The position numbers and the translations under genes were made by a program. From assembly GCA_965198065.1 (NCBI GenBank), contig CBDAON010000004.1, positions 896,001-960,000 of the forward strand: 64,000 bases of DNA, written 5' to 3'. The notes below the pieces were generated by a model. It made no database searches and was not told the origin of the DNA. It worked only from the letters and a program-made list of their open reading frames with translations. The DNA is from Longimicrobiales bacterium. GTDB lineage: Bacteria; Gemmatimonadota; Gemmatimonadetes; Longimicrobiales; Gaopeijiaceae. Shown here in pieces: positions 6,623 to 25,693 of this stretch; position 1 is the first letter of the stretch, and every line of letters begins with the position of its first letter.

Positions 6623-9322
6623 TCAGCTGACCCGCTTCTCCTCGCGCGCCTCGCGCACCGCCTCCAGCACGCGCGCCGCCACATCGCGCTCTTCGCGGAG
6701 CGCAGTGATCAGAGCCTCGGCCTCCTTCGCTTGGAACGACAGCTGCCCCGCTTTCTCGAGCACCGCGTCCACCACCGCCTTCTGGCTGTGGACCGTCTCG
6801 AGACTGCCCTGGATGTCGTTGAGGAGCGTGTCCAGTCGCGCCATGCGCTCCTCGGCGTCGCCGATCTCCATCTTTTTCTTGTCGACTGCAAGCGCGAGCT
6901 CGTCTACACGAGCCGCTCGTTCGAGGACATCGTCGAGCACGGCCCGAGAACGCTGGATTTCCTGGCGCGCGTCTGTGATGCTCCTCACGTCGCTCACCGT
7001 GCCCTCCACCGCGGTGAATAACTGATCCAGCTCTCCACGCACTGCGTCCACTCCTTCCTGCCGTGTGGCCAGGTTCTGGAGCGTTTGCTCCAGACTCTGC
7101 TCGGCCGCCGAAAAGCCAGCAAGCTTCTCCTCGAACTGGGTGATGCGCTTTTCCGCGAAGCGCAGGTTGCCCACCCTGCCCTCGACCTGGTCAGCCAGCT
7201 CTGCCATGAGGGAGGCCTGTTCGCCCGCCGCAGCAGCCGCATGGGACACGCGCCGCTCCTGTTCCTCCAGATCCCGGATCCCTTTCGAGAGGTCCTTGTG
7301 CAGGGCGGTGGCACGCCCCAGATCGGCCATCGCGCTCTGTAGAGCCTTCTCGCGCGTCTCCAGCTCCTGACCTACGGCCTCGATCTTGACCCCGAGCGAC
7401 TCCACGTCGGCCGCACGGAGGCCGGCTGACCTAACCGTCGCATCGACCTCCCGGATCCGGGCCTCCGTGCCTTCCACGCGCTTCGCCAAGGCGTCAAAAC
7501 GCCCCTCCACCTGTCCAGCTTCTTCGGCGCGTTGGGCCACCTGCTTGAAACGACGGTCGGCATCATCGAGTCGGTCGTTCAGCCCGCGAGCGTGTTCCTC
7601 GAGTTCGGTGATGGCAGCCCGACGCGATTCCATCACGCTCATGCGCTCGTCCAGGCTATTCGACAGCATGCCGAGGTCGTCCAACCTCTCTTCCACGGAC
7701 GTCAGCAAGCGCTTGCGCTCTTCGATCAGGTCATTGCGCGCAGCGAGATCATCCAACGCCGTGCGCGTCTCGTCGATGCGCGCGACGTCAAGGTCCATGT
7801 CCGCGACCTGAGTCCTCAACTCATCGAGTTGGGTCTGCGTTTGGGTCAGCCAGGAGCGGGTGTCCGCTTGTGCGGCGTGACTCCGCTCCACCTCGGCGCG
7901 GGCTTCCTTGAGCTGTTCCAGCGTATCGTTGACCCCGTCGTGCGCCTTGCTCAGCTCGACGATGTCGGCTGCCATCCTGTCCAGGGACGGTTGCGAGTCC
8001 TCTAGGCTCTGAACCCGCTCTCGCACCCGCGCAGCGGACGCCTCGGCCCGCTCCAAAACGGAACGCATGGCGTGTGCGCGCTCCGCCTGCTCGTCCACCC
8101 GTCCAATGTCTGTCATGAGGGTGGCCAGCCGTGCGGTCAACTCATCCGCCCGCGCCGTGGCCCCAGCCATATCGCGAGTGGCCTTCTCCATGTCTGAGCG
8201 CCGGCCCTCGAACTCTCCGAGTGTGCTCCTCAGGCTGAGGACCTGTGTGTTCACCGTATCCAGGCCACTACGCTCCATCTCGAAGCGTTGGAGCCCGGCG
8301 TCGATTTCGTCACGAATTTCGCCCAGCCGCTTCTCCAGACCCCTGCCCTCCCGGGCCACGTTCTCTTCGCGCGTCCTCAGGGTGCCTAGCTGCTCCTCCA
8401 CCCGTTGCACCAGCTCCTGTACTCCGAGAATTCGCTTCTGCGTCTTCTGGATCACCTTGGAATCCTCGGTGACCTTCTTGAGCTTCTTGTCCACGTCCCA
8501 CACGAGATCGTCCAGGCGGGCGGCTTGGGCCGCCGCCCGGTCAACGACTTCGCGCTGCTCCTCGAGAGACCCGGTCTTGCGGCTGACGTGCTCGGCAAGC
8601 GCATTAAGGTTCTGAAGCTGCTGCTCCACCCGGGACGCCACCTCCCCTACCTTGGTAACCTTGGAGGTTGCAGCCTCCATCCGGGCCAGCCGCGCGGAAG
8701 CCTCCTCCACCTCGCGTCCCAGACGCTGCGATAGCGAGCGTAGCTCCTCGAGCTCGCCCTGCTCCACCGCCTGCCCCTTCCGCAGCGTCTCCTGGGCCTC
8801 CTCTACCTCGTGGAGACCTTCCCGCACGTCCTTGAGCCGCTCGCCCACCTCTTCCGACTTCTGCTTGAGCTGGTCCACCGTGCCCGCCGGCCCGGCCAAC
8901 CCCTCCACGTCGGCGCGCACCTTGCGCGCCTCCTTGAGGGCAGCCTTGATCCCGGTAATCTCCCCTTCGAAAGACCCCATCTCTTCGCGTATCTGAGCGA
9001 GTCCCTCCCCAGCCTCGCCCTGGCCTTGCTCCAGCTCAGCCGCGCAGTCACGAGCTCGGGCAACCTCGTCAGAAAGCTCGGAGACGCTGTCAGCGCGGCT
9101 CTCAGCCGATGCTAGCACCTCGCCGAACTCCTCTTGGCGCCTCGCCACATCGACGAGCTGCTTGTCCACCTTGCTCATGGACTTGGCGGCGCCGCGCACC
9201 CGCTTGAGGACAACCTCGAGCTCCGCCTTCTCCTCTTTTACTTCACCCAGCAGTTCCTGGAGTGCAAGCGGAAGCTCGGCGGCAGATGAGCGGAACGATT
9301 TCCGGATACCGAACAGGGCCAT
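6623..9322 (-). CDS. 899-aa coiled-coil protein of unknown function
   Basis: E/L/A/R/Q-rich heptad pattern over the whole length, very few Pro. No Walker A, TM helix or signal peptide seen. Confidence 0.85.
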   Translation of the reverse strand: MALFGIRKSFRSSAAELPLALQELLGEVKEEKAELEVVLKRVRGAAKSMSKVDKQLVDVARRQEEFGEVLASAESRADSVSELSDEVARARDCAAELEQGQGEAGEGLAQIREEMGSFEGEITGIKAALKEARKVRADVEGLAGPAGTVDQLKQKSEEVGERLKDVREGLHEVEEAQETLRKGQAVEQGELEELRSLSQRLGREVEEASARLARMEAATSKVTKVGEVASRVEQQLQNLNALAEHVSRKTGSLEEQREVVDRAAAQAARLDDLVWDVDKKLKKVTEDSKVIQKTQKRILGVQELVQRVEEQLGTLRTREENVAREGRGLEKRLGEIRDEIDAGLQRFEMERSGLDTVNTQVLSLRSTLGEFEGRRSDMEKATRDMAGATARADELTARLATLMTDIGRVDEQAERAHAMRSVLERAEASAARVRERVQSLEDSQPSLDRMAADIVELSKAHDGVNDTLEQLKEARAEVERSHAAQADTRSWLTQTQTQLDELRTQVADMDLDVARIDETRTALDDLAARNDLIEERKRLLTSVEERLDDLGMLSNSLDERMSVMESRRAAITELEEHARGLNDRLDDADRRFKQVAQRAEEAGQVEGRFDALAKRVEGTEARIREVDATVRSAGLRAADVESLGVKIEAVGQELETREKALQSAMADLGRATALHKDLSKGIRDLEEQERRVSHAAAAAGEQASLMAELADQVEGRVGNLRFAEKRITQFEEKLAGFSAAEQSLEQTLQNLATRQEGVDAVRGELDQLFTAVEGTVSDVRSITDARQEIQRSRAVLDDVLERAARVDELALAVDKKKMEIGDAEERMARLDTLLNDIQGSLETVHSQKAVVDAVLEKAGQLSFQAKEAEALITALREERDVAARVLEAVREAREEKRVS

Positions 9323-9964: not shown

Positions 9965-11075
9965 CTATACGACATAGTCGCTCCATGCCTGCATGACTTC
10001 GCGCCGGCGCGCCAGCAGGTCCGATCTCATGTACGCGCCCTCGGTGCCGCGCACGACGTGAGCCAACACGGCTTCCGCCGTCTCGCGGTCCACGCCGGTT
10101 TCGGCCATCCAGACACGAATCGACGTTCGGAAACCGTGCAGCGTCGTCCCGGTGACACCGGCCAGCTGGAGCACCCGGAAAGTGGATTTCGAGGACAGCG
10201 CGCGGCCGGCCCGCGTCAGGAAGACGAACGGCGAATCGTCGGCAAGCTCGCTGGCGCGCCGCTGGACAGCGGCACGCGATGCTCCCGGCCGGCTTTCATT
10301 CTCGCCGGCGGGATCGTCCAAACCTTCGCCGCCGTGTCGATTTCGTCCCACGTCGCGGCGCGCGCTTCGCCGGAGCGCGCCGCCGTCAAGACGATCAGCT
10401 CGACGGCGAGCCGCGCGGATTCCGGGGCGTTGGCCGACCGAATGCGCCGGAGCGCGTCCAGAACCTCACCGTGCGGGAGCGCGCGATGGTGCGTCGTGCC
10501 GTTGCCGTTGACCTTCGGGAGCGCGGCCACTGCGCGGTCCACGGGATTCGTCGAGATGTAGCCTTGTCCGACGCACCAGCGAAATGCCGCGTGGAGCCGG
10601 TTCCGGGCTTTCCGCGCGGCGGCTGGCTTCACGTTCCATACCGGCCGGAGACACGCCAGCACGTCGCCCGACGTGATCCGGTCCACCGGCTTGTCCCGGA
10701 TCGGCGTGGCGTACAGCCTGAACGTCGAGCGCCATTCCCCGAGGAGCGGCGAGCCGGCTTTCCACGATTCGGCGTGTAGCCGGATCGTCTCTTCGGCGGC
10801 TTCGCGAAACGTCGGGACGCCGCCGCCGCGCGGGTCCACACCCTGGCCGATGGCCCGCGCGTTCTCAATGGCCTTGTGCCGGGCTTCCGCCAACGAGACT
10901 TCGGGAAACCGGCCGAGCCCGGTCGTCGTCAGCCGCCCCGCGACGCGCAACCGTTGCCTCCATGTGCGCGAGAGCCGGCCGCTCTTCATCCTGTGAACGC
11001 GCAAGCTCAGGCCGCGCGAGCCGCGTCCGTCGCCGTAAACGCCGGGCTTGCTCACCGTCCGAACGAAGGCACCGC
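9965..11075 (-). pseudogene. P4-like tyrosine integrase, frameshifted, start missing
   Basis: Arm-binding N-terminus (PGVYGDG..GLSLRV..GLGRFPEVSLAEAR), TAARSGE and MKAGREHRVPLS; HGFRTS, LAH and AYMRSDL lie in a second frame after ~10255. Confidence 0.9.
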
Positions 11076-11188
11076 CGACACCGAGCTCCAGGTCGAGCAG
11101 GTCGTGCTCCGCATCCACCCGGCACCGGAGGCGCCGCACGGCGCGACCGCCGATAATATACTTAAGACTATTTAACCAACTCTGATAC

Positions 11189-11339: not shown

Positions 11340-11555
11340 TCACTCGGCACTGCTGCGGCTCGCGGCGATCTGTTCTCGGATCCACGCATCCACTTCGGAC
11401 TCGATCCAGCCGACGGCGCGCGCGCCGAGCCGGATCGGTTGGGGAAAGCTCCCGTCGGCCACCCGCACGTAGATCGTGCTCCGCGCCAGCCCGGTGCGGG
11501 CCTGCACTCGAGGTAACCTCAGGACGCGCGCGGGCGCGTCCATGCCCTGTTCCAT
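11340..11555 (-). CDS. AlpA-family regulator/excisionase
   Basis: VLRLPRVQARTGLARSTIY...GSFPQPIRLGARAVGWIESEVDAWI. Confidence 0.92.
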   Translation of the reverse strand: MEQGMDAPARVLRLPRVQARTGLARSTIYVRVADGSFPQPIRLGARAVGWIESEVDAWIREQIAASRSSAE

Positions 11556-11599
11556 TGCTCTTCCGGGGCGCGTTGCCCCGGGAGGGAACAGGGGCCACA

Positions 11600-11793
11600 T
11601 GGGCCCGGCTGCAGGCTTCGATGAACACGGGGACCTGGCAGGCCATCGCCAGCCTCGGGGAGCGGCCAGGACGGAGCTGACGCACCAGGATCGGATCGCC
11701 CACCGCTTGCCGACCGGGCGTGGATGTTCTCATGCCCGTGCGCTCGACGGACGCAGCCACTCGCGATTGGAACTGCTTCGTCAGCATCCCCAT
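11600..11793 (-). pseudogene. Degenerate small phage-type DNA-binding protein
   Basis: MLTKQFQSRVAASVERTGMRTSTPGRQAVGDPILVRQLRPGRSPRL looks like an HTH-type protein; sits directly upstream of alpA. Confidence 0.4.
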
Positions 11794-12000
11794 GGCGGTT
11801 ACGGTCGAGACGCGGCCCACGAGGACCCGCTCATCCACGGCCGAGGCTGGCCGGGCACGGCCAGATCTCGCCTCGGAGGGAGCTTTCAAGTGAGTCGAAC
11901 GTTGGCCGGCGACTTGCGGGGACGGTCACCCTGGATCTTGATCTCGCCGCATCGAGCGGGCGCGGCCCCACGCCTCGAAGGCGGGCGCCGCGCCCGGCGC

Positions 12001-12423
12001 TCAGCGGGAGATCGCGGTCCCGTACGCGGTCAGGTCCCTGAGCGCGAAGTCCTCGCCCGCCACCTGGAGCAGCCTCACGCGGTACCGGGCCTCGTCGCCC
12101 CGGTGGGGCACCCAGACCCGCACTACGGGCGCGTCCGGCAGCGCTCCGGCGATGATGACCTCGCGTCGCGTCGAGGACGATTCTTCCGTCTCGAACATCT
12201 CCAGACCCGGCGCCTGCAGCGAGTCGATGGCCGGACCCTCGATCACCAGCATGGCTCCGATGTCGCGAGCCTGCGGCGGGGCCGTCAACCGGACGTGCAG
12301 AGGGCCGGGATCCACGACCGCCGCGTTGGCTCCGTCATACCGGGGTGCGTCATTCCGCGGGTCGACAATGCCGTCCCCGCAGCCCCATACCGAGATTACC
12401 ACGGCCAGCAACGCCGTCCGCAA
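12001..12423 (-). CDS. Putative lipoprotein with a single beta-rich domain
   Basis: MRTALLAVVISVWGC lipobox-like signal, then ~110 aa of beta-strand-patterned sequence. Overlaps the end of the upstream surface-protein ORF. Confidence 0.65.
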   Translation of the reverse strand: MRTALLAVVISVWGCGDGIVDPRNDAPRYDGANAAVVDPGPLHVRLTAPPQARDIGAMLVIEGPAIDSLQAPGLEMFETEESSSTRREVIIAGALPDAPVVRVWVPHRGDEARYRVRLLQVAGEDFALRDLTAYGTAISR

Positions 12424-15068
12424 CCACCCGGACCGCCGGGTCGCGGAACCGGTGGCGGGTGGGTCGGGAACCGTTCGGCGGTGGCGGGCAGGACCGCGCG
12501 CGCCCTTTCGCCGCCGGCCGGCCCGGATGCCTCGCCCCCGCGGCAGCGGGCGGCCCAGGCGAGCATGTCGCCGAGGTCATACCCTCCGTTCCCGTTGCCG
12601 AGACTGTCCAGGGCGGCAAGTCGGTCATCGCTCACATCGCCGTCCTCCCACAACGCCGCGACCATTGATGTCCGGGTCATCTCCTCTCCAATGCCCAGAG
12701 CGGAGCAGAGGCGCGCGGCCCGGCCTGGCCAGCCGGGGGCGGCCGCCGCGGAGCTCGCCGCCGGACCCTTGACCGTCGCCGACGGGCTGTTGGTCAACTG
12801 CCGCCGGTTCTCCCCCTTGGTGCAGATCGCACCGGACGTCGCGCACTCGCGCCCCACCGCCAGCGTGATCGTCACGTCCCCGTCCGAGTCCGGCCTCACC
12901 GTCATCTCGAACAGGTCGCGCCGGCCGTCCACGCGCGAGCCGCCCGTGACCCGCCCGCCGGTCACCGTGAACGCATCCTCGCGCAGCGCCCGGAAACTGA
13001 TCCCGATGTCCTCGCTGAACGCCACCCGGAAGTGGAACCCGCCCTCGCCACGGTGTTTGGCCGGCATGCCCTCGAACGACGCCGTCAGCTCCGGCGGTCC
13101 CGAGCCGCCCGCCGGACCCGCCACCGTCGCCGACAGGCTGTTGGTCAACTGCCGCCGGTTCTCCCCCTTCGTGCAGATCGCACCCGAGACCCCGCACTCG
13201 CGCCCCGCCGGCAGCTCGATCGAAACGGCGCCGTCGCCGTCGGGCGCCACCGTCATCTCGAACAGGTTGCGGCGGTCGTCCACGCGCGCCCCCCGTGTCA
13301 CCCGCCCGCCGGTCACCGCCAGCGCGTCCTCGCGCAGCGCCCGGTAGCTGATCCCGATGTCCTCACTGAACGCCATACGGAACGTGAACGCGCTCCCGTC
13401 GTGCGCCGCCGGCACGTCCTCGAACGTCGCCGTCAGCGGCTGGATCTCGCTGTTGTGGATCGTGCCCGTGGCCTCGCCTTCGCCGGACCTGAGCTTCGCG
13501 CCGTCCGGGTTCGACAGCGTCAGCGTGAACGTCTCGCCGTCGTCCTCGTGGGCGTCGTCGGTGATCGGCACCGACACCGTCCGTTCCGTCTCCAGCGGAT
13601 TGAACGTCAGCGTGCCGCGCGTCTCCGTGTAGTCGGAGCCCGCCCTCGCCGCTTTGCTCCCCGTGCCGTCGGCCGTCGCGTAGTCGACCGTCACGATGCC
13701 CAGGCCGTGCGGCTCCAGGCGCACCGTGAACTCCATCTCGCCGTCGGCCTCGTGCGCCTCGGCATCCTCCACCGACAGGTACGGCCCCGCCGCCCGTGAC
13801 CCGTCCACCTTGTGGCCGCGCTGCGTGCCCTTCCCCTTGTAGGAAAGGTGCGCCTCCTGGTCCGCGGCGTTGCGGATGCGGTCGCCGGACACCACCTCGA
13901 TCGGGTTGCCGCGGATCGCGATGCCGTTGCGGTCGATGTCGACCTCCAGCACCAGGTACGCGAACACCAGCGTGTTCGTGCCGCTCCCCGACTCGTAGTC
14001 GGCCTCGCACACCGCCAGGCAGGGATTGCCCACCTCGAGCGCGAACGTCGGCTCGCCCTCGACCACCACCGGCTGGTCGAAGCGCACCTCGATGCGGATG
14101 TTCTCGCCCTCGCCGTAGGTGTCCCTGGTCGTGGTGCCCTTCGAACTCAGCCGCGGCGTCGAGACCACCTCGATCCGTTCGATCATCGGCACGTCCGCCG
14201 TCCCGTCAACCTTGTGGCCGGACTGCGTACCGAGCGCGGCATGGTCCAACTCCGTGGCCCCGCCGCCCTCGCTTGTAATCCGTGCCCCGGAGGCGAGCCG
14301 CAACGCATTGGCGCCGATGCGCACGCCGTCCTCGTCGCGGTCGAACAGCTGCACCTTGTATTCGAAATGCATATGCCGGGCGACCTGGGCCTGCGGGGTA
14401 TCGGCGGTCGGGCGCTGGCTCTGCGAGAGGCCCGAGAACACGGCCTCCACCGTGTTCCCGGAGGCCCCGCCGGGATTGTCGAGACCGACCTCCAGCCTCA
14501 GTCGCCCCGGTGTGACCCGCACCGGTTCGTTGAACGTCACCGTGAACAGGATCGTCTCGTATGAGCGGTACGTGTCCCCCGACTGTGGCGCGGACGCGAC
14601 CACCACGGAGGTGACTCTGGGGGGAGCGCAGACGGCCCCCCGGAAAGTGATCGTCGCCAGCCACGTGTGCAGTTGAGATCCCGGCGGCACTCACAGACCT
14701 GTGTTGCGAATGTCGAACACATCGAGCTGGGTCAGTTTCTCTAATTCGGGAGGGATCGCCCCGCTCAACTCGTTGCTGAAGAGATCCAGGTTCAGGAGGT
14801 TGCCCAGATTCCCGAGCTCGGATGGGATCTCCCCCGTCAACTGGTTGCCGCCAAGCCTCACTTCGCTAACTCGGCCGTTGCTGTCGGTAATAACCCCGTG
14901 CCACTCCCCCAGCGGCTCTATGCTCACCCAGTTGTCGCTGTAGGTCCAATTCGCACCGTCCGTCGCGCCGTAGAGCACCACCAGGGCAGCGAAGTCCGAC
15001 TCCACCGTTCCTTGCGCGTGAGCGTTTTCCACTACGAGCAGGCCGGTTGCCAGCAGAGCAACGGAACC
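12396..15068 (-). pseudogene. Multidomain surface protein (LRR, 2 Ig-like repeats, Calx-beta, 2 further repeats, C-terminal DxxGNGNGxYDLGD motif) with in-frame TGA
   Basis: Plant-type LRRs (LGGNQLTGEIPSELGNL). In-frame TGA at 14691-14693 joins two ORFs. Calx-beta (VTVDYATADGT..AGSDY..GTLTF). Tandem ~110-aa repeats at ~13440-13110 and ~13090-12765. Confidence 0.8.
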
Positions 15069-15755
15069 TGACAACAGCGATGAGACACCCGGAGTCATAA
15101 TTTAGTGAGCAGGCTGCGGTGTCGGAGCCGCAGCTGGTGGATTGATCCAGACCTCCGTCGGGAGAGGCTGGGGCGTGGGGATCCCCTGCACGAAGCGTTC
15201 AGGGTGTTCTGACCACGCCTGCTGGAGAGTGCGCTCACGCTGGGCGAGCACGTCACGGGCTCGGTCGTGATGGACATCAGCCGGGGTGAGCATCGCGATC
15301 CCGCCGTGGCGATGCTCATGGTTGTACCAAGGGAAGAAGGATCGGCAGAAGTCGATCGCCGCGCCGATGTCGGCGAAGCGTCCGGGGAAGTTGGGGTGGT
15401 ACTTGACGGTCTTGAAGTGCGCCTCCGAGAAGGGGTTGTCGTCGCTGACCCGGGGACGGCCGAGCGAGCGGGTGATCCCGAGGTCGGCGAGCAGCTGGGC
15501 CGTGCACTTGCTGGTCATCGGGGCCCCGCGGTCGGAGTGCAGGGTCAGCGTCTCGGGCTGGACATCCTGCTTGAGGCAGCTCTCCTGGATGAGCCGGCCG
15601 GCGAGCGCGGAGTTCTCGCGGTCGCCGACCATCCATCCGACCACGTACCGGCTGAAGATGTCGATGAGGACGTAGAGGTAGAAGTACGACCACTTCTCGG
15701 GTCCGAGAAGCCGGGTGATGTTCCACGACCAGGTCTGGTTCGGTGCCGTGGCCAC
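15069..15755 (-). mobile_element. IS3-family transposase 3' fragment with probable right end (different isoform)
   Basis: PNQTWSWNIT..YLYVLIDIFSRYVVGW..HSDRG..DNPFSEAHFKT. Probable IR ending ...GTGTCTCATCGCTGTTGTCA at 15069. Confidence 0.85.
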
Positions 15756-15820
15756 GAGCGGTAGTTTTATGGGGCACTATTCTGGGGCAGACTACCGTAT
15801 CCCTCAACCGGTGCCCCAAC

Positions 15821-17333: not shown

Positions 17334-20300
17334 CTACTGCGGCTTCCCGTCGTCCAGAATGTCATCCACATTGCGATTCCTCGCGCCAGGCACATCGGGA
17401 AAACGAAGCCTCCGTTGCGCTGTGAGGCGCTTAAGACCAAAAGAATCGAGCACCGCCCGAACATGGTCACCGGAGCCAGATTCGAACCCCTCATCTTGCG
17501 ACAGCTTGCGTGCCATGAGCTGAAGCTCGCTCGGCGGAATCTCCTCGAAGGTGCGGGGGCCACGCTCGCGAAGCACGGTTGCAGGCGTACCCTTGATGCG
17601 CACGATCGAGTTGACTAGGCCCCCGGTGCCGAACTCGTCCTCCTTGGCAACTCGACCTTGTCGAATGGCGTGCTGGAGCGCCCCGTTCAAGGCACGCTTG
17701 AGTGGGCGACCCATTCGGGCGATGCCAATGCCGCGCAGATAGAGGTTGTAGGCTCGCTTGCCTAGCATCGGACCCTCTGTATCGATGATGCGGCAAAGCC
17801 CCTCGGCAACCTGGGCGGGTGTGGAGTGCCGCGGGTCAGGGCCAGCTGGTCCTTCGAATGCGACGTAGGGTGCGACTCTATTGGGGACGGGCGTGACTGG
17901 GTCATGGTTTGTAGGAAGCGGTCGATTCTCGGGATAGGAGGTCGGTTCTGGTTCTTCCTGGGGCTCGACTACAAGCTCGCGGGCATCCGGCTTCGGGTCA
18001 GAGCCATGCGTGGGCGTTGGCGAGGCCTCGTCGAAGGGACGCGGAACCGTAGGCACCACCTCGACCAACTCTGGGGACGCCGGCTGACCATCCGAGGGCT
18101 CATCGAGATCGGCTTCCGTTCGCCTCTGCGAGCCTCTCGACTTCGGTGGCGGCGGCGCTGCGGCTGAGTCGTCGATGCCGCCCGGCCGGATGCCGAGGCG
18201 ATCGAGCTCTGCCCACACGGGCTCCATGGCCTTTTCGCAATCCCGGTAGAAGTCGCTACCCTGAATTCGGGCGAAGTGCCAGCCCGCCCGCTCGAGATCG
18301 CGTTGACGCGCCATATCCTGCTCGTAGCGATCAGGGCCGTGCCACTTGTCACCATCGCACTCTACCGCCAGTCGCCCTTGCATGCCCTCGACGACCAAGT
18401 CGATCCGGTAGCGGTGATTTACCGGGTCGCCCACGCACACCTGAGTTCTCACGTGAAATCCGCGTTCGGTGATGCGCTGGTAGACATCTCGTTCGAACTT
18501 TGACTCGAACCGCTGCTCATCCGGATCGGTCGGCTTCCGCCCTGGGTTGAGCATGTAGCTGAGGAGGGCATGACGCATGCATTTGTCGCTGAGCAAATCG
18601 AGCTCGGCCGTATGGAAGAGCCAGAGCTGGTCTTCGGCGCGGCTGACCGCAACGTTGAAACGCTGCCGGGCGGCCTCGTTTGCGAGCACACCGATCCGGT
18701 GCTCTCCTGGGGCCGCGACCAGGCTCAGGAAGATCACGTTGCGCTCGTCGCCCTGGAACGCATAGGCATCGCCGCAAATGAGCCGCCGCTCCACAATCAC
18801 CTCGGGATCGAGCGCCTGGAGAAGCTTGTTCTCGATCAGCTTTGCCTGCGCCTCGCCTTGGAGACTTATCACGCCCATGGTCCTGCCGACGTAACGCGGG
18901 TCGTCTATACAAGCGCAGATCTGCTCGACGATCGCCTCCGCTTCCGGCGGGTTCTGTGCGTTCTGTGCGGAGTTGGTGCTTCCCCTGCGGTATCCGTCAG
19001 GCACGTGCCGACGTACAAGTGGTTGAAGCCGATTGGCGGTGTAGGCACGCAGCGGATCGAGGGGCACACCGTTGCTGGCGTAACAAAGGTCATTCGAGAA
19101 CTGGATGATCTCGGGCATGCACCGAAAGTGCTCGCGTAGCACGATGTTCTGATTAAACCGGATTTTCGCGTTAGCGTAGACGCTACTCTGCGGGTAGAGC
19201 GCGACCTTGTGCGGGACACCTTCCAGAAAGTGCTGTTGCAGGGCAGCGACATCGGCATCGGGAATACCTACGCCCGCAGGGTTGATCTGCTGATCATCAC
19301 CGACGACGATGATCTTCTTGGAGATATAGAAGAGAAACAGGCTCTCGATGCCCAGTTGGCTGGCTTCATCGACGATAACAAGGTCGTAGAGACCCGGCGA
19401 AGGGTCGATCATTTCGGCCACAAGATACCGCGGCATGATCCAAATCGGGATCGCCTTACGGCATTCATCCATGTAGTTGCGCGCCTCCCGCCTCAGACGT
19501 GCTATTTTTGCGGATTTCCCTGTGCCCTTGCCCATCGCGCGCACCGCCTCGCGCCAGCCTTTGAGCGCATTGCGTTCGCGCGGGGAGAGACGCTTGAAGA
19601 AGTCCTTCCAAGCCCGGAGGGAAGCGGCTTCTGCGACGAGTCCGCTCTTCCTAACCTCTGCCTCGTGACGCCTTCGCCAGAGTTCCTGCTGGTAGTCGAA
19701 GTCGGACCGCTTCTTGAGCCACCCGTCAGCCCACGCCCAGCGCCAGGCGTCCTCCCAATGGGAGAGCCGATCATCCCAGACCGGCTCGTTGAGGCTCGAC
19801 TCGATTTCCTCCGCCAAGCTAGGTGCAGCCAACCTGATCGCGGCCTCGATTCGCGCGCGTTCCGACTGGGCCTCCCGCGTCCGTTCGATCACAACTACAT
19901 GCTCGTGACATTGGCTGTAGGCTGTCACGTCTCGCGCGGCAATCGCGTCGAGAAGCTCGTCTACGACAGCGTGGACGTCATGCAGCCCGCGAAGTCGCGC
20001 TAGGGGCTGGCCGCATGCTACGACTTGCCGTTCCGCCTCGTCCAGCTCCTCGTCGATGCCCGCGCCGACGATGAGATCGACCCACCGCTGCGCTTCTCTA
20101 TCGAGCCAGTTGGGCGTCGGGACCGGGGGGGACTTGCGGGACATGTTCTGGGCAGCTTGGGTACAGGCGTCGCCGTATTCGAGTGCGTCCTCAAGGGCTG
20201 ACACGTGCGGTTTCAGATCGGGGAGGCAGAATCGCCGGTCGGCCGAGATTTCAGTGACTCCTACGTCCTTCCAGAGGCTCACAAGATCTGCAAGCGCGAA

Positions 20301-22751
20301 CTCGAGGTCGAAATCATCGCATACAAAGCTCAGCTTCTGGACATTATCGGCGGGTTGTCCGTCGACCAGAACATCTCGCTTGAGATAGGTTCGTCCTTTG
20401 AGTGCCTTTGGGGTGACCAATCCAAGTAACTTCCACTTGCCACCGGCCTGTAGATGCTTGGCCGCGCCCACCGCATCCGAGCGTATTTTCCGAGGGTCGA
20501 GCCCTTCAGGCCGGGTCACGACTCGACTGCCGAGACTACGCAGCAGCGGCTCAATCTGCCCGATGCGCTCCTTGCTGAGCTTGAGCAGCGTACGCCACTT
20601 TGCGTTGCGACTCGCGACCACCTCTTGGAGCGTTGCGAGCAACCACTCAGCCTGTCCACCTTGGAGAGCGCGCCGTTGCTCCTCGATGTTCCTGAGATCG
20701 TCGGCTAGATGGTTCCGCTCGTCGGTCGGTAAAGCGCGAATCGGCGAGAAGGCTGGGTGCGGTCGGAGCGCGTCCACTTGCTCGCTACTGCGCGTTCGTG
20801 CTGTAGCCTCTTTTGAGACGATGCCTCCGAAATCTGCCGGAGCAGTGAGAGTGGCACTGCTCGGGATCTGGAGTGTCGAGGCCGCGACATCCTCGTCCGA
20901 ATACCGCCTGCGAATCTCCAGCCATCTGGCTGCCTCGGCATTCGAGATCGTCGGATGATTCTTCGCATCCCGTGCCAACCGGAGCCACCCAAAGATCTCG
21001 CGCTCGTCGGCTACCCTGGCCGCGATCTTCGAGGCCGTGCCTTCGTATGCGCCATCAAGCAGCGGATGTGACAGCGTCTCGTATTCCCGCAGGCTTCGGA
21101 TCTCCGAGTCGATCCCGGCGAGACGCCTTCGTGCCACGTCGAGCTCACGATCGATCTCTGCGATCCTGTCATCATATGTGCCCGGCGAGTATGAAGCTTG
21201 CCGGTTTGTGATTCCCTGCACGGCCGTGTTGAGCTCCGCGAATGCGTCTCCGCCGTGCCCAAGCAAGCTGACGCACAAGGGCTGGATTTCATTAGGGAGC
21301 ATGCGCTTGAGAACCTGGAGGGCGCGCCCCGTTTCCGCCGTGATGAGTACTCGCTTCCCCGTGGCGAGCAGGTGGCACATGAGGTTCGCGATGGTGTGGC
21401 TCTTGCCGGTGCCGGGTGGACCTTGAACCAGCACTCCCTGATCGCGGTCGATCGCATTGACGATACACCGCTGCTCGCGGTTGGCTGGCAACGGGAAGTA
21501 AATCTCTGACGGTGACAGCGTGCTCCCACTATGCGTTCCATCGTGACCATCGTACCCCGAAGGCTTCCCACCTCCATCTCCCCAGTCGTCATCAGTAAGC
21601 TCGCCCCAGCCGCGGGGCACTTCGCCTGCTTCGTCCTCAAGGTTCTGGATCAGTTTCTCGTAGATACGGACCATGCCAGTCTGGAGGCGCTTGCGAAGGA
21701 TCAGTGCAGGCGCAAAGCTTACGACTGGGTCATTTCCAGTTGACGGCTTGGCGCTGAGTCCCTCGGACCAGACCATGTCGGGGCTTAGTGCCCCTGTCCA
21801 GGTCTTGAGCGGAGCATGGATGAGCGACTTGTCCCAGATCGCGTCACCCACCTCCTCAAGCTGCGCTTCGACCGCGTCATAGTATGATCGATCAGGTCGG
21901 AGTTCGGCCTCGAGCATGTCGTCTTCGACGCGCAGGTTCGCCCCCTCACTGGGGGCGCCTACGCGAATGACACCCCTGCCTGGGTCAAAGGTCAACTCGA
22001 CCTGCCCGACCACCGCGTGGCGGCGAATCGGGATCGACTTATTGCCGCTCTTAGCTTGCCAGTCCATCAGGCCCAGCCCGAGGACGACCTCGACGATCTC
22101 GCTCTGCTTTTGCAACTGCGAATAGAGCCTGAAGAGCTTGGCATAGAGATCCTGCACCGCCTTACGACGGCGATCTTCGGCCGCCCAGGCTTCCCACTTC
22201 GGCCGGAAGGCCCGATAGGCCCCGACGACTTCGGGGTAGTCCTCCAGTGGTAGCTCGACGAGTGGCGGTGTCTCGCCCTCCTCCAGATCGAGTTCCGTAT
22301 CTTCCTCGAGGATGTTCGGGCGCAGTGGCGTAATATTCGAAGTCGCCCTGAGGAGGGCCTCTGCGTCGACCCATTTCGCGATCATGTCGGGTGGCTCTGG
22401 CGGCCTCTCAAACTCCTGCTTGCGGACCTCGAGCCAAGGCTCTTCTAGATCGTAGTCGTCGGTCCAGGCGCCACTGTGGCAGTCCGCGGCTTGCGGCATC
22501 TCGTCGAACCAGAGCACGGAATCGTACTTGGCTACATCGCGAACGGTCGTACTGCGAAGACCAACGAACTCTTTTAAGTACCGCGCGAGTCGCAGCGAGG
22601 GACTCTCGATTCGGTTACTGTTCGTGCTCAAGCTACCCTTCCGTAGACCTGGTGGTGATGGATCTCTCCTCTCCGCTCTAGGCTCGTGAGTCGGCTGCGG
22701 CGCTCCTCTTGTGGATCTTGCTGATCTGATGACGGGTGACTCATGCTTCAA
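17334..22751 (-). CDS. Large SF1 (Upf1/Dna2-like) helicase with C-terminal Vsr-like PD-(D/E)XK nuclease and DUF3320-like tail; probable defence protein
   Basis: VQGPPGTGKSHT, DLVIVDEASQ, VGDDQQ, LREHFRC, FQGDERN and RFNVAVSRA. Nuclease FESKFE..YRIDLVV..LAVECDGDKWH..QRDLERAGW. True start may be near 22630. Confidence 0.9.
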   Translation of the reverse strand: MKHESPVIRSARSTRGAPQPTHEPRAERRDPSPPGLRKGSLSTNSNRIESPSLRLARYLKEFVGLRSTTVRDVAKYDSVLWFDEMPQAADCHSGAWTDDYDLEEPWLEVRKQEFERPPEPPDMIAKWVDAEALLRATSNITPLRPNILEEDTELDLEEGETPPLVELPLEDYPEVVGAYRAFRPKWEAWAAEDRRRKAVQDLYAKLFRLYSQLQKQSEIVEVVLGLGLMDWQAKSGNKSIPIRRHAVVGQVELTFDPGRGVIRVGAPSEGANLRVEDDMLEAELRPDRSYYDAVEAQLEEVGDAIWDKSLIHAPLKTWTGALSPDMVWSEGLSAKPSTGNDPVVSFAPALILRKRLQTGMVRIYEKLIQNLEDEAGEVPRGWGELTDDDWGDGGGKPSGYDGHDGTHSGSTLSPSEIYFPLPANREQRCIVNAIDRDQGVLVQGPPGTGKSHTIANLMCHLLATGKRVLITAETGRALQVLKRMLPNEIQPLCVSLLGHGGDAFAELNTAVQGITNRQASYSPGTYDDRIAEIDRELDVARRRLAGIDSEIRSLREYETLSHPLLDGAYEGTASKIAARVADEREIFGWLRLARDAKNHPTISNAEAARWLEIRRRYSDEDVAASTLQIPSSATLTAPADFGGIVSKEATARTRSSEQVDALRPHPAFSPIRALPTDERNHLADDLRNIEEQRRALQGGQAEWLLATLQEVVASRNAKWRTLLKLSKERIGQIEPLLRSLGSRVVTRPEGLDPRKIRSDAVGAAKHLQAGGKWKLLGLVTPKALKGRTYLKRDVLVDGQPADNVQKLSFVCDDFDLEFALADLVSLWKDVGVTEISADRRFCLPDLKPHVSALEDALEYGDACTQAAQNMSRKSPPVPTPNWLDREAQRWVDLIVGAGIDEELDEAERQVVACGQPLARLRGLHDVHAVVDELLDAIAARDVTAYSQCHEHVVVIERTREAQSERARIEAAIRLAAPSLAEEIESSLNEPVWDDRLSHWEDAWRWAWADGWLKKRSDFDYQQELWRRRHEAEVRKSGLVAEAASLRAWKDFFKRLSPRERNALKGWREAVRAMGKGTGKSAKIARLRREARNYMDECRKAIPIWIMPRYLVAEMIDPSPGLYDLVIVDEASQLGIESLFLFYISKKIIVVGDDQQINPAGVGIPDADVAALQQHFLEGVPHKVALYPQSSVYANAKIRFNQNIVLREHFRCMPEIIQFSNDLCYASNGVPLDPLRAYTANRLQPLVRRHVPDGYRRGSTNSAQNAQNPPEAEAIVEQICACIDDPRYVGRTMGVISLQGEAQAKLIENKLLQALDPEVIVERRLICGDAYAFQGDERNVIFLSLVAAPGEHRIGVLANEAARQRFNVAVSRAEDQLWLFHTAELDLLSDKCMRHALLSYMLNPGRKPTDPDEQRFESKFERDVYQRITERGFHVRTQVCVGDPVNHRYRIDLVVEGMQGRLAVECDGDKWHGPDRYEQDMARQRDLERAGWHFARIQGSDFYRDCEKAMEPVWAELDRLGIRPGGIDDSAAAPPPPKSRGSQRRTEADLDEPSDGQPASPELVEVVPTVPRPFDEASPTPTHGSDPKPDARELVVEPQEEPEPTSYPENRPLPTNHDPVTPVPNRVAPYVAFEGPAGPDPRHSTPAQVAEGLCRIIDTEGPMLGKRAYNLYLRGIGIARMGRPLKRALNGALQHAIRQGRVAKEDEFGTGGLVNSIVRIKGTPATVLRERGPRTFEEIPPSELQLMARKLSQDEGFESGSGDHVRAVLDSFGLKRLTAQRRLRFPDVPGARNRNVDDILDDGKPQ

Positions 22752-23129
22752 TCATTCCGGGATGTCTTGGCCATACCTTTGTGAAATTAGTGTTCCCCGC
22801 CTTCCCGGTTCCGCTCCACATCCGAATCACTATAGCGCGAAGGCGTGGAGAGCGCATTTGAGGGTAAGGCGCCAGCCGCGCGCCTATTCGTGGTGCGTTA
22901 CCGTTGTCGAGCGCCACTGGGAGCGCGGCGTATCGGCGGACCGATCCGGCCTCCTGGCCCCGGCTCATCGGCCAGGTAAGCGGCCGCGGTGTACACCATC
23001 AAGTCGGCGACGGACGCTGGGTACCTGCCTTTGCCTTCCGCTAGGGGATTGATGGCGCGGGTCCCTCCGTGTCCATAGATCCCGCCAGGAAAGGCTGGGG
23101 CCAGCGCGGCGAGCGGCGACCAAGTGGGC

Positions 23130-23280
23130 GACGGACCTCGACGGCCTGTTGGCCCAGCGGGCGATCTGGTTGAGGTTGCCGCCGATGCGCGCGACTTGGC
23201 GGGTGCGCTCGCGCTCCACCGCGGCCGGCGGCGAGGGCGGTGCGGCGATCAGCCATCACCGCGCGCCGCCACGGGGGAAA
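23130..23280 (-). pseudogene. MobC relaxosome accessory protein remnant
   Basis: ERERTRQVARIGGNLNQIARWAN signature. Confidence 0.8.
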
Positions 23281-23393
23281 GCCCCCTGCCCGCAAACTCC
23301 GCCGCAACGCGAGTCTCCAGGGGTTCGAAGGGGAGCGGAGCCACCCCTCGCCAGCCCCTGCCGGGGACCCGCGAAGCGTGGCCCCAAAGGGTA

Positions 23394-23430
23394 AGCTGGC
23401 TCATGACTTCTAACGGGTCATGAGCCAGCT
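23394..23430. repeat. Perfect 14-bp inverted repeat, candidate oriT element
   Basis: AGCTGGCTCATGAC-N9-GTCATGAGCCAGCT upstream of mobC. No U-tract, so not a terminator. Confidence 0.6.
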
Positions 23431-23432
23431 CC

Positions 23433-23552
23433 TCAACGGATCGGTCTGGCCTCCGGGTCTCGACGTTCGCCGGCGAAATGCGCGGCCCAGTCGCTCATGA
23501 GCCGGCGCCGCCGCTCGAACAGATCCGTGTGGCGATAGGCCGCCTCGGCAGA
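23433..23552 (-). pseudogene. Tyrosine integrase C-terminal remnant
   Basis: AEAAYRHTDLFERRRRLMSDWAAHFAGER, the catalytic Tyr region. Confidence 0.8.
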
Positions 23553-23687
23553 GTACCGGTGGCGTGATTCACGTAGTCCTTCCAACAACAGTGAGGCCCC
23601 GTGACCGGACAGGTCTCTCCCGGTTGGGTATATACAGACGGCCATTCGCTTGATCACTGAGCTGAAGAGGCTAGAGGAGGACTCAAC

Positions 23688-25510: not shown

Positions 25511-25537
25511 TCACCTAAGTCTTTACCCTATAGGCTA

Positions 25538-25608
25538 TTGGCCCGGGTGGATTCGAACCACCACCGCCGGTTCCAAAGACCGGTGTCCTGCCATTAGACG
25601 ACGGGCCA
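25538..25608 (-). tRNA. tRNA-Gln(TTG)
   Basis: TGGCCCG acceptor stem; anticodon arm CCGGT-CTTTGGA-ACCGG; T arm GGTGG-TTCGAAT-CCACC. CCA not encoded. Confidence 0.96.
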
Positions 25609-25693
25609 ATGAGTCAACAAGTAAGCCAAATCACCTTCGGTTTTCCATATCCAAAAGTCCGGATCGGACACATTTTGGACACATCCGCCGGCC

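Follow-up and report, generated by a model that had tools for sequence, protein, structure and literature searches.

Docking between dockerins and cohesins is known mainly from the cellulosomes of Gram-positive bacteria, in which a scaffoldin with multiple cohesins collects dockerin-bearing glycoside hydrolases. Here we examine a locus in a 64,000-nucleotide (nt) stretch of DNA from a Longimicrobiales bacterium of the phylum Gemmatimonadota (contig CBDAON010000004.1, positions 896,001 to 960,000; the whole stretch is called the window below), where a passenger protein with a dockerin-like tag is encoded next to a lipoprotein with a predicted cohesin fold. We read the locus as a damaged copy of a Gemmatimonadota cassette in which the tag likely binds the predicted cohesin, itself likely lipid-anchored, which would tether the passenger to the envelope, and we put the probability of this reading at roughly 0.62. 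The Gemmatimonadota pair shows neither of the two cellulosomal components named above in the loci examined.

The Clostridium perfringens NagJ/NagH X82 cohesins and the Archaeoglobus fulgidus pair have in common with the Gemmatimonadota pair that no large scaffoldin is involved; to our knowledge, their proteins have no lipobox and are not fused through an internal signal. According to PMC9012536, non-cellulosomal cohesins and dockerins occur in diverse bacteria and archaea, and archaeal pairs bind each other. PMC2386152 describes a Gram-negative marine bacterium with dockerin-like and cohesin-like motifs. The group-2 truncated dockerins of Ruminococcus flavefaciens (9GVB) have one calcium loop and still bind a cell-anchoring cohesin; as given in PMC12270676, they are built as loop-helix-loop-helix with canonical N, N+2, N+4, N+6, and N+11 ligands and one binding helix. 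The words dockerin, cohesin, and lipoprotein are absent from the main text of PMC10469786 (Palauibacterales), Gemmatimonadota are unmentioned in a genomic survey of cellulosome-displaying bacteria (PMC11557425), and the accessible part of PMC12484212 holds nothing on the Gemmatimonadota tag-cohesin system. Our literature search, which left supplements and most subscription papers outside its scope, returned no paper on the pair or on internal lipoprotein signals in such proteins.

Predicted folds of the lipoprotein and the tag

The motif LDSLGNGNGGYDLGD (12611-12567, minus strand), followed by MLAWAARC, lies in an open reading frame (ORF) of 764 amino acids (aa). The motif pattern occurred in none of 200 codon-shuffled copies of the window, so it is not a chance match. 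The original prediction, made from the DNA of the window, had taken it for a C-terminal tag; the motif and MLAWAAR are present, but they are not terminal, as 56 residues lie beyond LDSLGNGNGGYDLGD, the last 40 of which (past a break at 12519) are out-of-frame read-through. The same prediction had described a leucine-rich repeat (LRR)/Calx-beta surface protein, of which the Calx-beta part is in the 764-aa ORF, whereas the LRR part is on a separate ORF (14691-15098). Its lipobox-bearing ORF with one beta-rich domain was borne out: the ORF at 12001-12423 (minus strand, 140 aa) has a TTG start, reads [M]RTALLAVVISVWG↓C, and contains VWG↓C at 12390-12379, with the lipobox Cys at 12381-12379, and a beta-rich domain of ~103 aa. 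The 28-nt overlap between the two ORFs was likewise found, at 12396-12423.

An AlphaFold2 model of the lipoprotein domain, built from 35 sequences, is the anticipated beta-sandwich (predicted local distance difference test, pLDDT, 93.8) with eight strands of at least three residues, compared with nine in the cohesin family. When the model was compared with 48,161 chains by VIA-align, ranks 1-21 were all cohesin entries (best Z 9.2, root-mean-square deviation, rmsd, 3.0, 100 aligned residues), and the first non-cohesin fold appeared at Z 6.2. The best matches were the C. perfringens X82 cohesins (2w1n, 2vo8, 2jh2) and the A. fulgidus cohesin (2xdh), with Z values of 9.2, 8.7, and 8.0. For the homologue P0025, the nearest Atlas cluster with a family, by features, was also cohesin (0.82; a lead only). 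Based on these models, the lipoprotein domain is predicted to have a cohesin fold. The alignments begin near residue 16 of 1ohz_A, so that cohesin strand 1, in the strand numbering that we assume here, is probably absent. Across 179 sequences, hydrophobic positions run consecutively on three strands (30-32, 49-50, and 62-64; 77-100% hydrophobic), which makes both sheet faces hydrophobic, and Ala95 is 94% conserved; these runs and Ala95 may form the dockerin-binding face (strands 8-3-6-5). Upstream of 131 of the 140 distinct cohesin domains, we found a hydrophobic stretch followed by [GAS]-Cys. None of the 35 members of the lipoprotein domain matched PF00963 at E values up to 1. Pfam and NCBIfam gave no family for either the tag or the cohesin part, and searches of both profiles against PDB sequences returned nothing below E 0.3. 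Some lipoproteins (L081:2707-7161, L083:2917-7905, L089, L109, L127, L136) have extra immunoglobulin (Ig)-like sequence between the lipobox and the cohesin, possibly a spacer that lifts the cargo off the membrane.

The tag has the consensus A-A-x-x-L-L-G-x3-L-S-x2-Q-x3-L-D-x-L-G-N-x-N-G-x-Y-D-L-G-D-x-L-A-W. Its loop, D-x-x-G-N-x-[ND]-G-x-[YF]-[DN]-x-G-D, fits 100 of 105 tags and is nearly invariant among those. The tag model contains three helices (residues 8-15, 23-32, and 41-53; pLDDT 73.9), and ranks 1-11 in VIA-align were all dockerin entries, with Z running from 6.3 down to 3.6 (best row, rmsd 2.6 over 53 residues) and the best unrelated row at Z 2.9. A tag profile matched 13 canonical dockerins of the same phylum at E 4e-4, a score reached by none of 100 column shuffles, while the comparison with a single canonical dockerin sequence (E 0.08) was uninformative. 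The aligned region comprises the end of helix 1, the linker helix, loop 2, with an insertion of two residues, and helix 3. In the region before helix 1 of the tag, the conserved acidic loop is absent, and the profile alignment begins after dockerin loop 1. Judged from the model and the profile, the tag looks like a dockerin without the first calcium loop. None of 34 tags matched PF00404 at E values up to 1, and the loop departs from the 12-residue pattern D-x-N/D-x-D-G-x-x-x-x-x-D in being two residues longer after the first Asp. Because the tag fails both the two-repeat definition and the Pfam model, we file it as dockerin-like rather than as a member of PF00404. The NCBIfam sorting signals PEP-CTERM, GlyGly-CTERM, and MYXO-CTERM were not found at the tails of 11 proteins tested, including three fused forms.

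Both predicted folds match the C. thermocellum type I pair, including the single-cohesin anchors OlpA and OlpC (1ohz, 2ccl, 3ul4, 4dh2). Shared features are a C-terminal tag on secreted cargo and one cohesin per anchor, which holds for each lipoprotein among the matches listed. The Gemmatimonadota pair differs in its single calcium loop with the two-residue insertion, its ~100-aa cohesin aligning from residue ~16 of 1ohz_A, its predicted lipoprotein anchor in a two-membrane bacterium, and its tag and anchor genes, which are one-to-one or fused. Unlike the C. perfringens and A. fulgidus pairs, it gives no Pfam dockerin or cohesin match. The canonical dockerins of the same phylum (PF00404), which are concentrated in the family f10, have two loops. 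In the R. flavefaciens group-2 dockerins, the one binding helix allows two dockerins to bind one cohesin, whereas the tag here is arranged as helix-helix-loop-helix with a longer loop; as it keeps three helices without the first loop, one-to-one binding is predicted.

Two further observations concern Cys residues near the tag. In the window's subfamily, they flank it (RLCSAL ... AARCRG, window 12710-12543), and most other fused members have a C-x(6)-C pair after it, which suggests a disulfide clamp. In three further proteins (L082:2068-3249, L241, L247), the tag is followed by a Cys pair, a Gly/Ala-rich stretch, and an Arg cluster, and an in-frame cohesin was not detected; these tails look like either a C-terminal sorting signal or broken fusions.

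Distribution and linkage of the pair

We searched 151 genomes drawn across Gemmatimonadota and found both parts in 68, the tag only in 4, the cohesin only in 3, and neither in 76. Thus the tag is present in 72 genomes (about half), and only 7 hold one part by itself, which agrees with the co-occurrence expected by the original prediction. For 101 tags, a cohesin was located 66-498 nt downstream in 71, in the same ORF in 12, and upstream within 12 kb in 8; none was detected in 10. An exact DNA pattern, searched over GTDB genomes, returned at least 112 stretches, and 78 of the 80 listed belong to named Gemmatimonadota. At these 80 loci, which overlap the phylum sample in part and have flanks of only 2.5 kb, the cohesin was downstream in 51, fused in 5, upstream in 11, and not detected in 12, with one contig edge; 67 of the 80 are linked. 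Those relatives of the two parts that carry a name belong to Gemmatimonadota, and Candidatus Palauibacter (P0006; L250) is the closest. The abstract of PMC10469786 tentatively suggests a marine, possibly sponge-associated origin.

Of 151 genomes of the window's family, 122 gave a tag match and 91 a cohesin match. From the roughly 32 genomes with a tag match only, 15 loci were taken, and in each of them the gene that follows encodes a divergent cohesin lipoprotein, so the shortfall reflects a limit of sensitivity in the loci checked. An overlap of exactly 4 nt was observed in 66 of 75 split pairs. Across 92 pairs, tag similarity and cohesin similarity were correlated (Spearman 0.54), and none of 300 re-pairings within 17 multi-pair genomes reached the observed correlation.

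In one genome of the window's family (G251), 10 tags were detected alongside 8 cohesins, and most of those listed are fused. Canonical dockerins (PF00404) were detected in 26 of the 151 phylum genomes. In the family f10, which belongs to another class (e.g., L284-L289), each of the 11 genomes has 14-38 canonical dockerins and none yielded a tag; over the phylum as a whole, the canonical and one-loop types are for the most part complementary. Both docking types are present within one gene cluster (L009:5174-10773; G012), where a protein with a PF00963-detectable cohesin is followed by a subtilase carrying a near-canonical two-loop dockerin and a one-loop tag, and then by a small cohesin lipoprotein.

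Cargos of the tag

Domains were scanned in 100 of the 105 tag-bearing ORFs. M6 metalloproteases made up 63 of the cargos, Vps10/BNR propellers 10, adhesin-type proteins (Calx-beta, cadherin, fn3, PKD, and LRR proteins) 9, and subtilases (S8) 4; RCC1, CARDB, and NHL occurred once each, 7 had only small Ig-like or pre-peptidase domains, and 4 gave no match. A system for displaying LRR/Calx-beta proteins specifically, as originally proposed, does not fit this range. The cargos are proteases, propellers, and adhesin-like proteins, and no glycoside hydrolase catalytic family was found among the 100 scanned ORFs, a further difference from C. thermocellum. An N-terminal signal was recognized by a crude rule in 70 of 99 tag-bearing proteins. 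Where tag and cohesin are not fused, 7-78 residues separate the loop from the C-terminus, with one exception. As unrelated cargos carry the tag at the C-terminus, it is modular.

The fused form and its internal signal

Across the class, tag and cohesin mostly belong to separate genes with a 4-nt overlap; the window's subfamily has them in one ORF. We selected 31 close homologues from 80 tag-search matches by their subfamily flanking words or a long tail, and in 27 of them a single ORF runs through the tag, an Arg-rich linker, an internal lipobox, and the cohesin. Of the other four, one is the ORF of the window itself, two are broken relatives, and the last has an unrelated long tail. The second possibility raised in the original prediction, a single frameshifted fusion with an internal lipoprotein signal, holds at this locus.

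In 16 fused linkers, the Cys lies 57-148 residues after the loop, and each of the 16 listed retains the hydrophobic stretch that ends in this Cys. Over the 30 residues preceding the stretch, 13 of the 16, including two linkers of 41-46% GC (guanine plus cytosine), have more Arg and Lys than either of the other two frames; such an excess, even at low GC, is the pattern of a selected signal n-region. Nine of the linkers contain a Gly/Ala-rich, moderately hydrophobic segment that could form a hairpin with the stretch or lead the chain back into the cytoplasm. Four of the 16 fused ORFs contain an internal start with a Shine-Dalgarno-like word, and 5 have no start codon nearby. Our best guess from these sequences is that the internal lipobox is cut by signal peptidase II.

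A genomic slot shared with barrel-like tails

Insertion sequence (IS) elements and integrases surround the cassette, and AlpA comes immediately after it. The genome also encodes a paralogous passenger (45% identity over 653 aa) whose C-terminal part is instead a barrel-like domain; Pfam gave no barrel match for this domain, which in our own reading of the sequence is autotransporter-type. Three barrel ends and both tag-cohesin copies in the genome are each followed by AlpA-region DNA, and the shared DNA starts at window position 11925, just past the cohesin stop. The barrel tail and the tag-cohesin tail thus occupy the same slot, and no other indirect evidence for an envelope-anchoring role of the tag-cohesin tail is as strong. 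A barrel of the autotransporter type has an unrelated fold and would export as well as anchor the passenger. A 1453-aa open frame (L011:5822-10183; G000:C4:2827821-2832183) combines cadherin, fn3, and Calx-beta domains with a C-terminal barrel-like domain to which Pfam gives no match.

Proposed mechanism and alternatives

At the family level, the idea of a tag and an anchor is supported, with the reservation due to models, as both predicted folds match and the parts co-occur and adjoin. The pair appears to be a real, class-wide, and unannotated variant of cohesin-dockerin docking, with an unusual fused form. In the mechanism that we propose, the N-terminal signal would export the passenger, and in split pairs coupled translation would yield one cargo and one socket. 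In the fused form, the Arg-rich linker and the internal signal would be treated as a second lipoprotein signal, and signal peptidase II would cut at the lipobox. The tag would then bind the cohesin, probably with calcium, and each lipidated cohesin would retain the passenger made with it, in a one-to-one complex that most likely sits on the outer membrane. The architecture, the linkage, the modularity, and the lesions are observed and both folds are predicted, whereas calcium use, docking, lipidation, and exposure at the surface are inferred. More tentatively, at somewhat less than even odds, a marine Gemmatimonadota lineage may have turned the class-wide cryptic pair into a self-anchoring polyprotein that is cut in the membrane and re-joined by docking; on mobile adhesin cassettes passed between genera, an autotransporter barrel could then stand in for the whole tail, and the tail for the barrel.

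Several observations weigh against docking or against this route, and neither structural match is decisive alone. Foldseek, which the original prediction had suggested as a check, placed cohesins in its top three rows for the lipoprotein model and the dockerin 1ohz_B in the best row for the tag (template modeling, TM, score 0.69), but the E values were only 0.012, with no row reaching 0.001, and 0.55. For small helical domains, the tool sets a caution level that the best Z of the tag does not reach, and the HHalign probability of the tag against the canonical dockerin profile is 35%. The linkage count is partly circular, since about 30 of the counted loci helped build the cohesin model, and the A2 and A3 (cohesin) models were both built partly from loci later counted. 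The covariation of tag and cohesin points to co-inheritance, and co-inheritance of neighbors is not binding. Asp at +2 is the inner-membrane retention signal for lipoproteins in Escherichia coli; the +2 residue is mixed here, and is Asp in 19 of 131 lipoproteins. A secretin was not found in this 87.6%-complete genome, which leaves passage through the outer membrane unexplained. The hairpin-capable segment is absent from the window's subfamily (best 15-residue hydropathy -0.07, in L250), and the Arg tract is absent from the fused relatives P0100 and P0111.

Some of these points would be accommodated if the tag binds the cohesin but the complex stays periplasmic, or if the lipoprotein is a folding, export, or inhibitory partner of the cargo. 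Proteases often come with dedicated partners, and the M6 and S8 proteases account for 63 and 4 of the 100 cargos; the strict one-to-one coupling suits such a partner, and the missing secretin and the mixed +2 residue are consistent with a periplasmic location. We nevertheless regard this alternative, though a serious competitor, as unlikely, as the 9 adhesin-type cargos would be of little use in the periplasm and the module fills the genomic slot of an autotransporter-like barrel.

The fused protein might instead remain uncut, with the internal stretch as a stop-transfer anchor and the tag and cohesin pairing in one chain or lying across the membrane. A chain whose export begins at the N-terminus should leave the lipobox Cys on the cytoplasmic side unless it crosses the membrane a second time, and the window's subfamily lacks a segment for such a crossing; the five fused ORFs with no internal start codon near the signal fit an uncut chain as well. 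The stretch ending in Cys, kept in every fused linker, and the Arg/Lys excess before it follow the pattern of a selected signal n-region, and they make an uncut protein improbable.

That the tag is a stand-alone calcium-binding or stabilizing end cap, co-inherited with a non-binding lipoprotein, is more doubtful still. The tags for which no cohesin was detected nearby (10 of 101 and 12 of 80) and the loop that differs from the dockerin spacing by two residues speak for an end cap. Modules resembling the two halves of one complex (PDB 1ohz for both) are, however, adjacent or fused in about 90% of cases, and all 15 apparent orphans that were re-examined adjoin a cohesin.

Docking of the tag on a lipid-anchored cohesin would have several consequences. 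It would name a likely function for a large set of "hypothetical" lipoproteins, in a pair that Pfam and NCBIfam miss in about half of the sampled Gemmatimonadota genomes, and it suggests how these widespread, barely cultured bacteria keep proteases and adhesins on their cells. A 45-residue one-loop tag and its 100-residue socket could be a new orthogonal docking pair for surface display. The fused form raises an export question, namely whether an internal lipoprotein signal is processed after an exported passenger. If the polyprotein reading is true, bacteria with two membranes would have a new route to surface display, and nature would offer an example of signal peptidase II working on a signal that lies hundreds to two thousand residues into a protein.

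The window copy

The genome that holds the window comprises 3.05 Mb in four contigs and is 87.6% complete. Three relatives of the window copy (P0094, P0104, and P0107) match the two window ORFs in full-length fashion at 85-95% identity, each spanning both with a single change of frame near 12510. Compared with the commonest in-frame spacing of fused relatives, the window is missing 67 nt between two short direct repeats, and the 28-nt overlap results from this deletion within a gene that is normally a fusion and carries its lipoprotein signal internally. A 97%-identical copy from another genus (L007) has TGC (Cys) where the window has TGA (14693-14691); this stop splits the passenger, so the 764-aa ORF has no signal peptide of its own. 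Compared with L007, the LRR domain of the window has also lost two repeats through a 144-nt in-frame deletion, and upstream of about 15061 the passenger start and n-region are replaced by IS-derived DNA. Because of the frameshifting deletion, the Cys-to-stop change, and the replaced start, the window copy is likely a pseudogene; an assembly error at one lesion is possible. It would export no tagged passenger and make at most a small lipoprotein from the weak TTG start. In public sequencing runs, an X6 contig bridges the deletion site with 67 additional nt and an X5 contig with 66; among the public-run contigs listed, none spans the deletion in the form of the window, the best holder sharing 0.59 of words.

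The two working, overlapping genes of the original prediction are not upheld at this locus, with its 67-nt deletion and two further lesions: although the lipoprotein ORF is open with a TTG start and a lipobox, and out-of-frame alleles recur in L003, L192, and the X5 contig, a working split pair like the class-wide arrangement is very improbable, given that the frame breaks at three different places (L003 and L192 have lost one base each, elsewhere than at the window's break), that L002 and L250, both fused, differ by indels whose lengths are divisible by three, that a typical split overlap is 4 nt and not 28, that the 764-aa ORF lacks a signal peptide and an IS has taken the place of the n-region in the upstream piece, and that no selenocysteine tRNA was found to read the TGA.

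Two other explanations were rejected. Selenocysteine read-through of the TGA finds no tRNA-Sec among the 50 tRNA genes of this genome (87.6% complete), and the loss of a GTGA start/stop overlap as the source of the 28-nt overlap disagrees with the closest intact relatives, which are in-frame fusions. A second copy in the genome has kept the tag-cohesin fusion and lost the front end of its passenger to an integrase fragment, and a third pair (L072), an M6 protease with a lipoprotein, is split and open. The window copy is probably dead, so that the interest of the system rests with the family and with relatives that are intact, such as P0094.

Features and surroundings of the locus

The features of the locus are collected in Table 1.

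Table 1. Positions of the cassette and its immediate neighbors in the window
Feature	Position	Strand	Remarks
Tyrosine integrase, C-terminally truncated	10216..11139	minus	PF00589 positions 7-76 of 172
AlpA regulator	11340..11600	minus	same gene after both tag-cohesin copies and three barrel-type anchors in the genome
Predicted cohesin-fold domain and stop codon	12001..12312	minus	
Hydrophobic stretch and lipobox VWG↓C	12379..12423	minus	putative internal signal of the fused gene; possible TTG restart here
Arg-rich linker remnant in the frame of the lipoprotein, GRRRKGARGPARHRRTVPDPPATGSATRRSGW	12424..12519	minus	
Remaining copy of short direct repeat; frame switch	12510..12524	minus	site of the missing 67 nt
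Dockerin-like tag: helix, helix, one predicted calcium loop, helix	12543..12680	minus	
Loop motif LDSLGNGNGGYDLGD	12567..12611	minus	family consensus L-D-x-x-G-N-x-N-G-x-[YF]-D-[VL]-G-D
ORF with the rest of the passenger, 764 aa	12396..14690	minus	Calx-beta and unnamed repeats, tag, out-of-frame tail
Two ~110-aa repeats of an unnamed domain	12740..13437	minus	same domain in the barrel-anchored paralogue of the same genome
Calx-beta domain	13494..13772	minus	PF03160, E 2e-17
N-terminal passenger piece with LRR domain and damaged signal peptide	14691..15098	minus	separate ORF, ended by TGA 14693-14691
IS remnant abutting the passenger signal peptide	15062..15759	minus	rve integrase core; 99.9% copy elsewhere in the genome

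Other features were noted around the cassette. An 899-aa protein (6623-9322, minus strand) gave only weak matches to coiled-coil families. Inside the mobile region, an 1805-aa protein (17334-22751, minus strand) combines a superfamily-1 helicase with an MTES_1575/DUF559 nuclease domain and is possibly a defence gene. ARAGORN reported a permuted transfer-messenger RNA (tmRNA) at 22986-23658, without support from Rfam. The right edge of the IS- and integrase-rich region is marked by a tRNA-Gln at 25537-25609.

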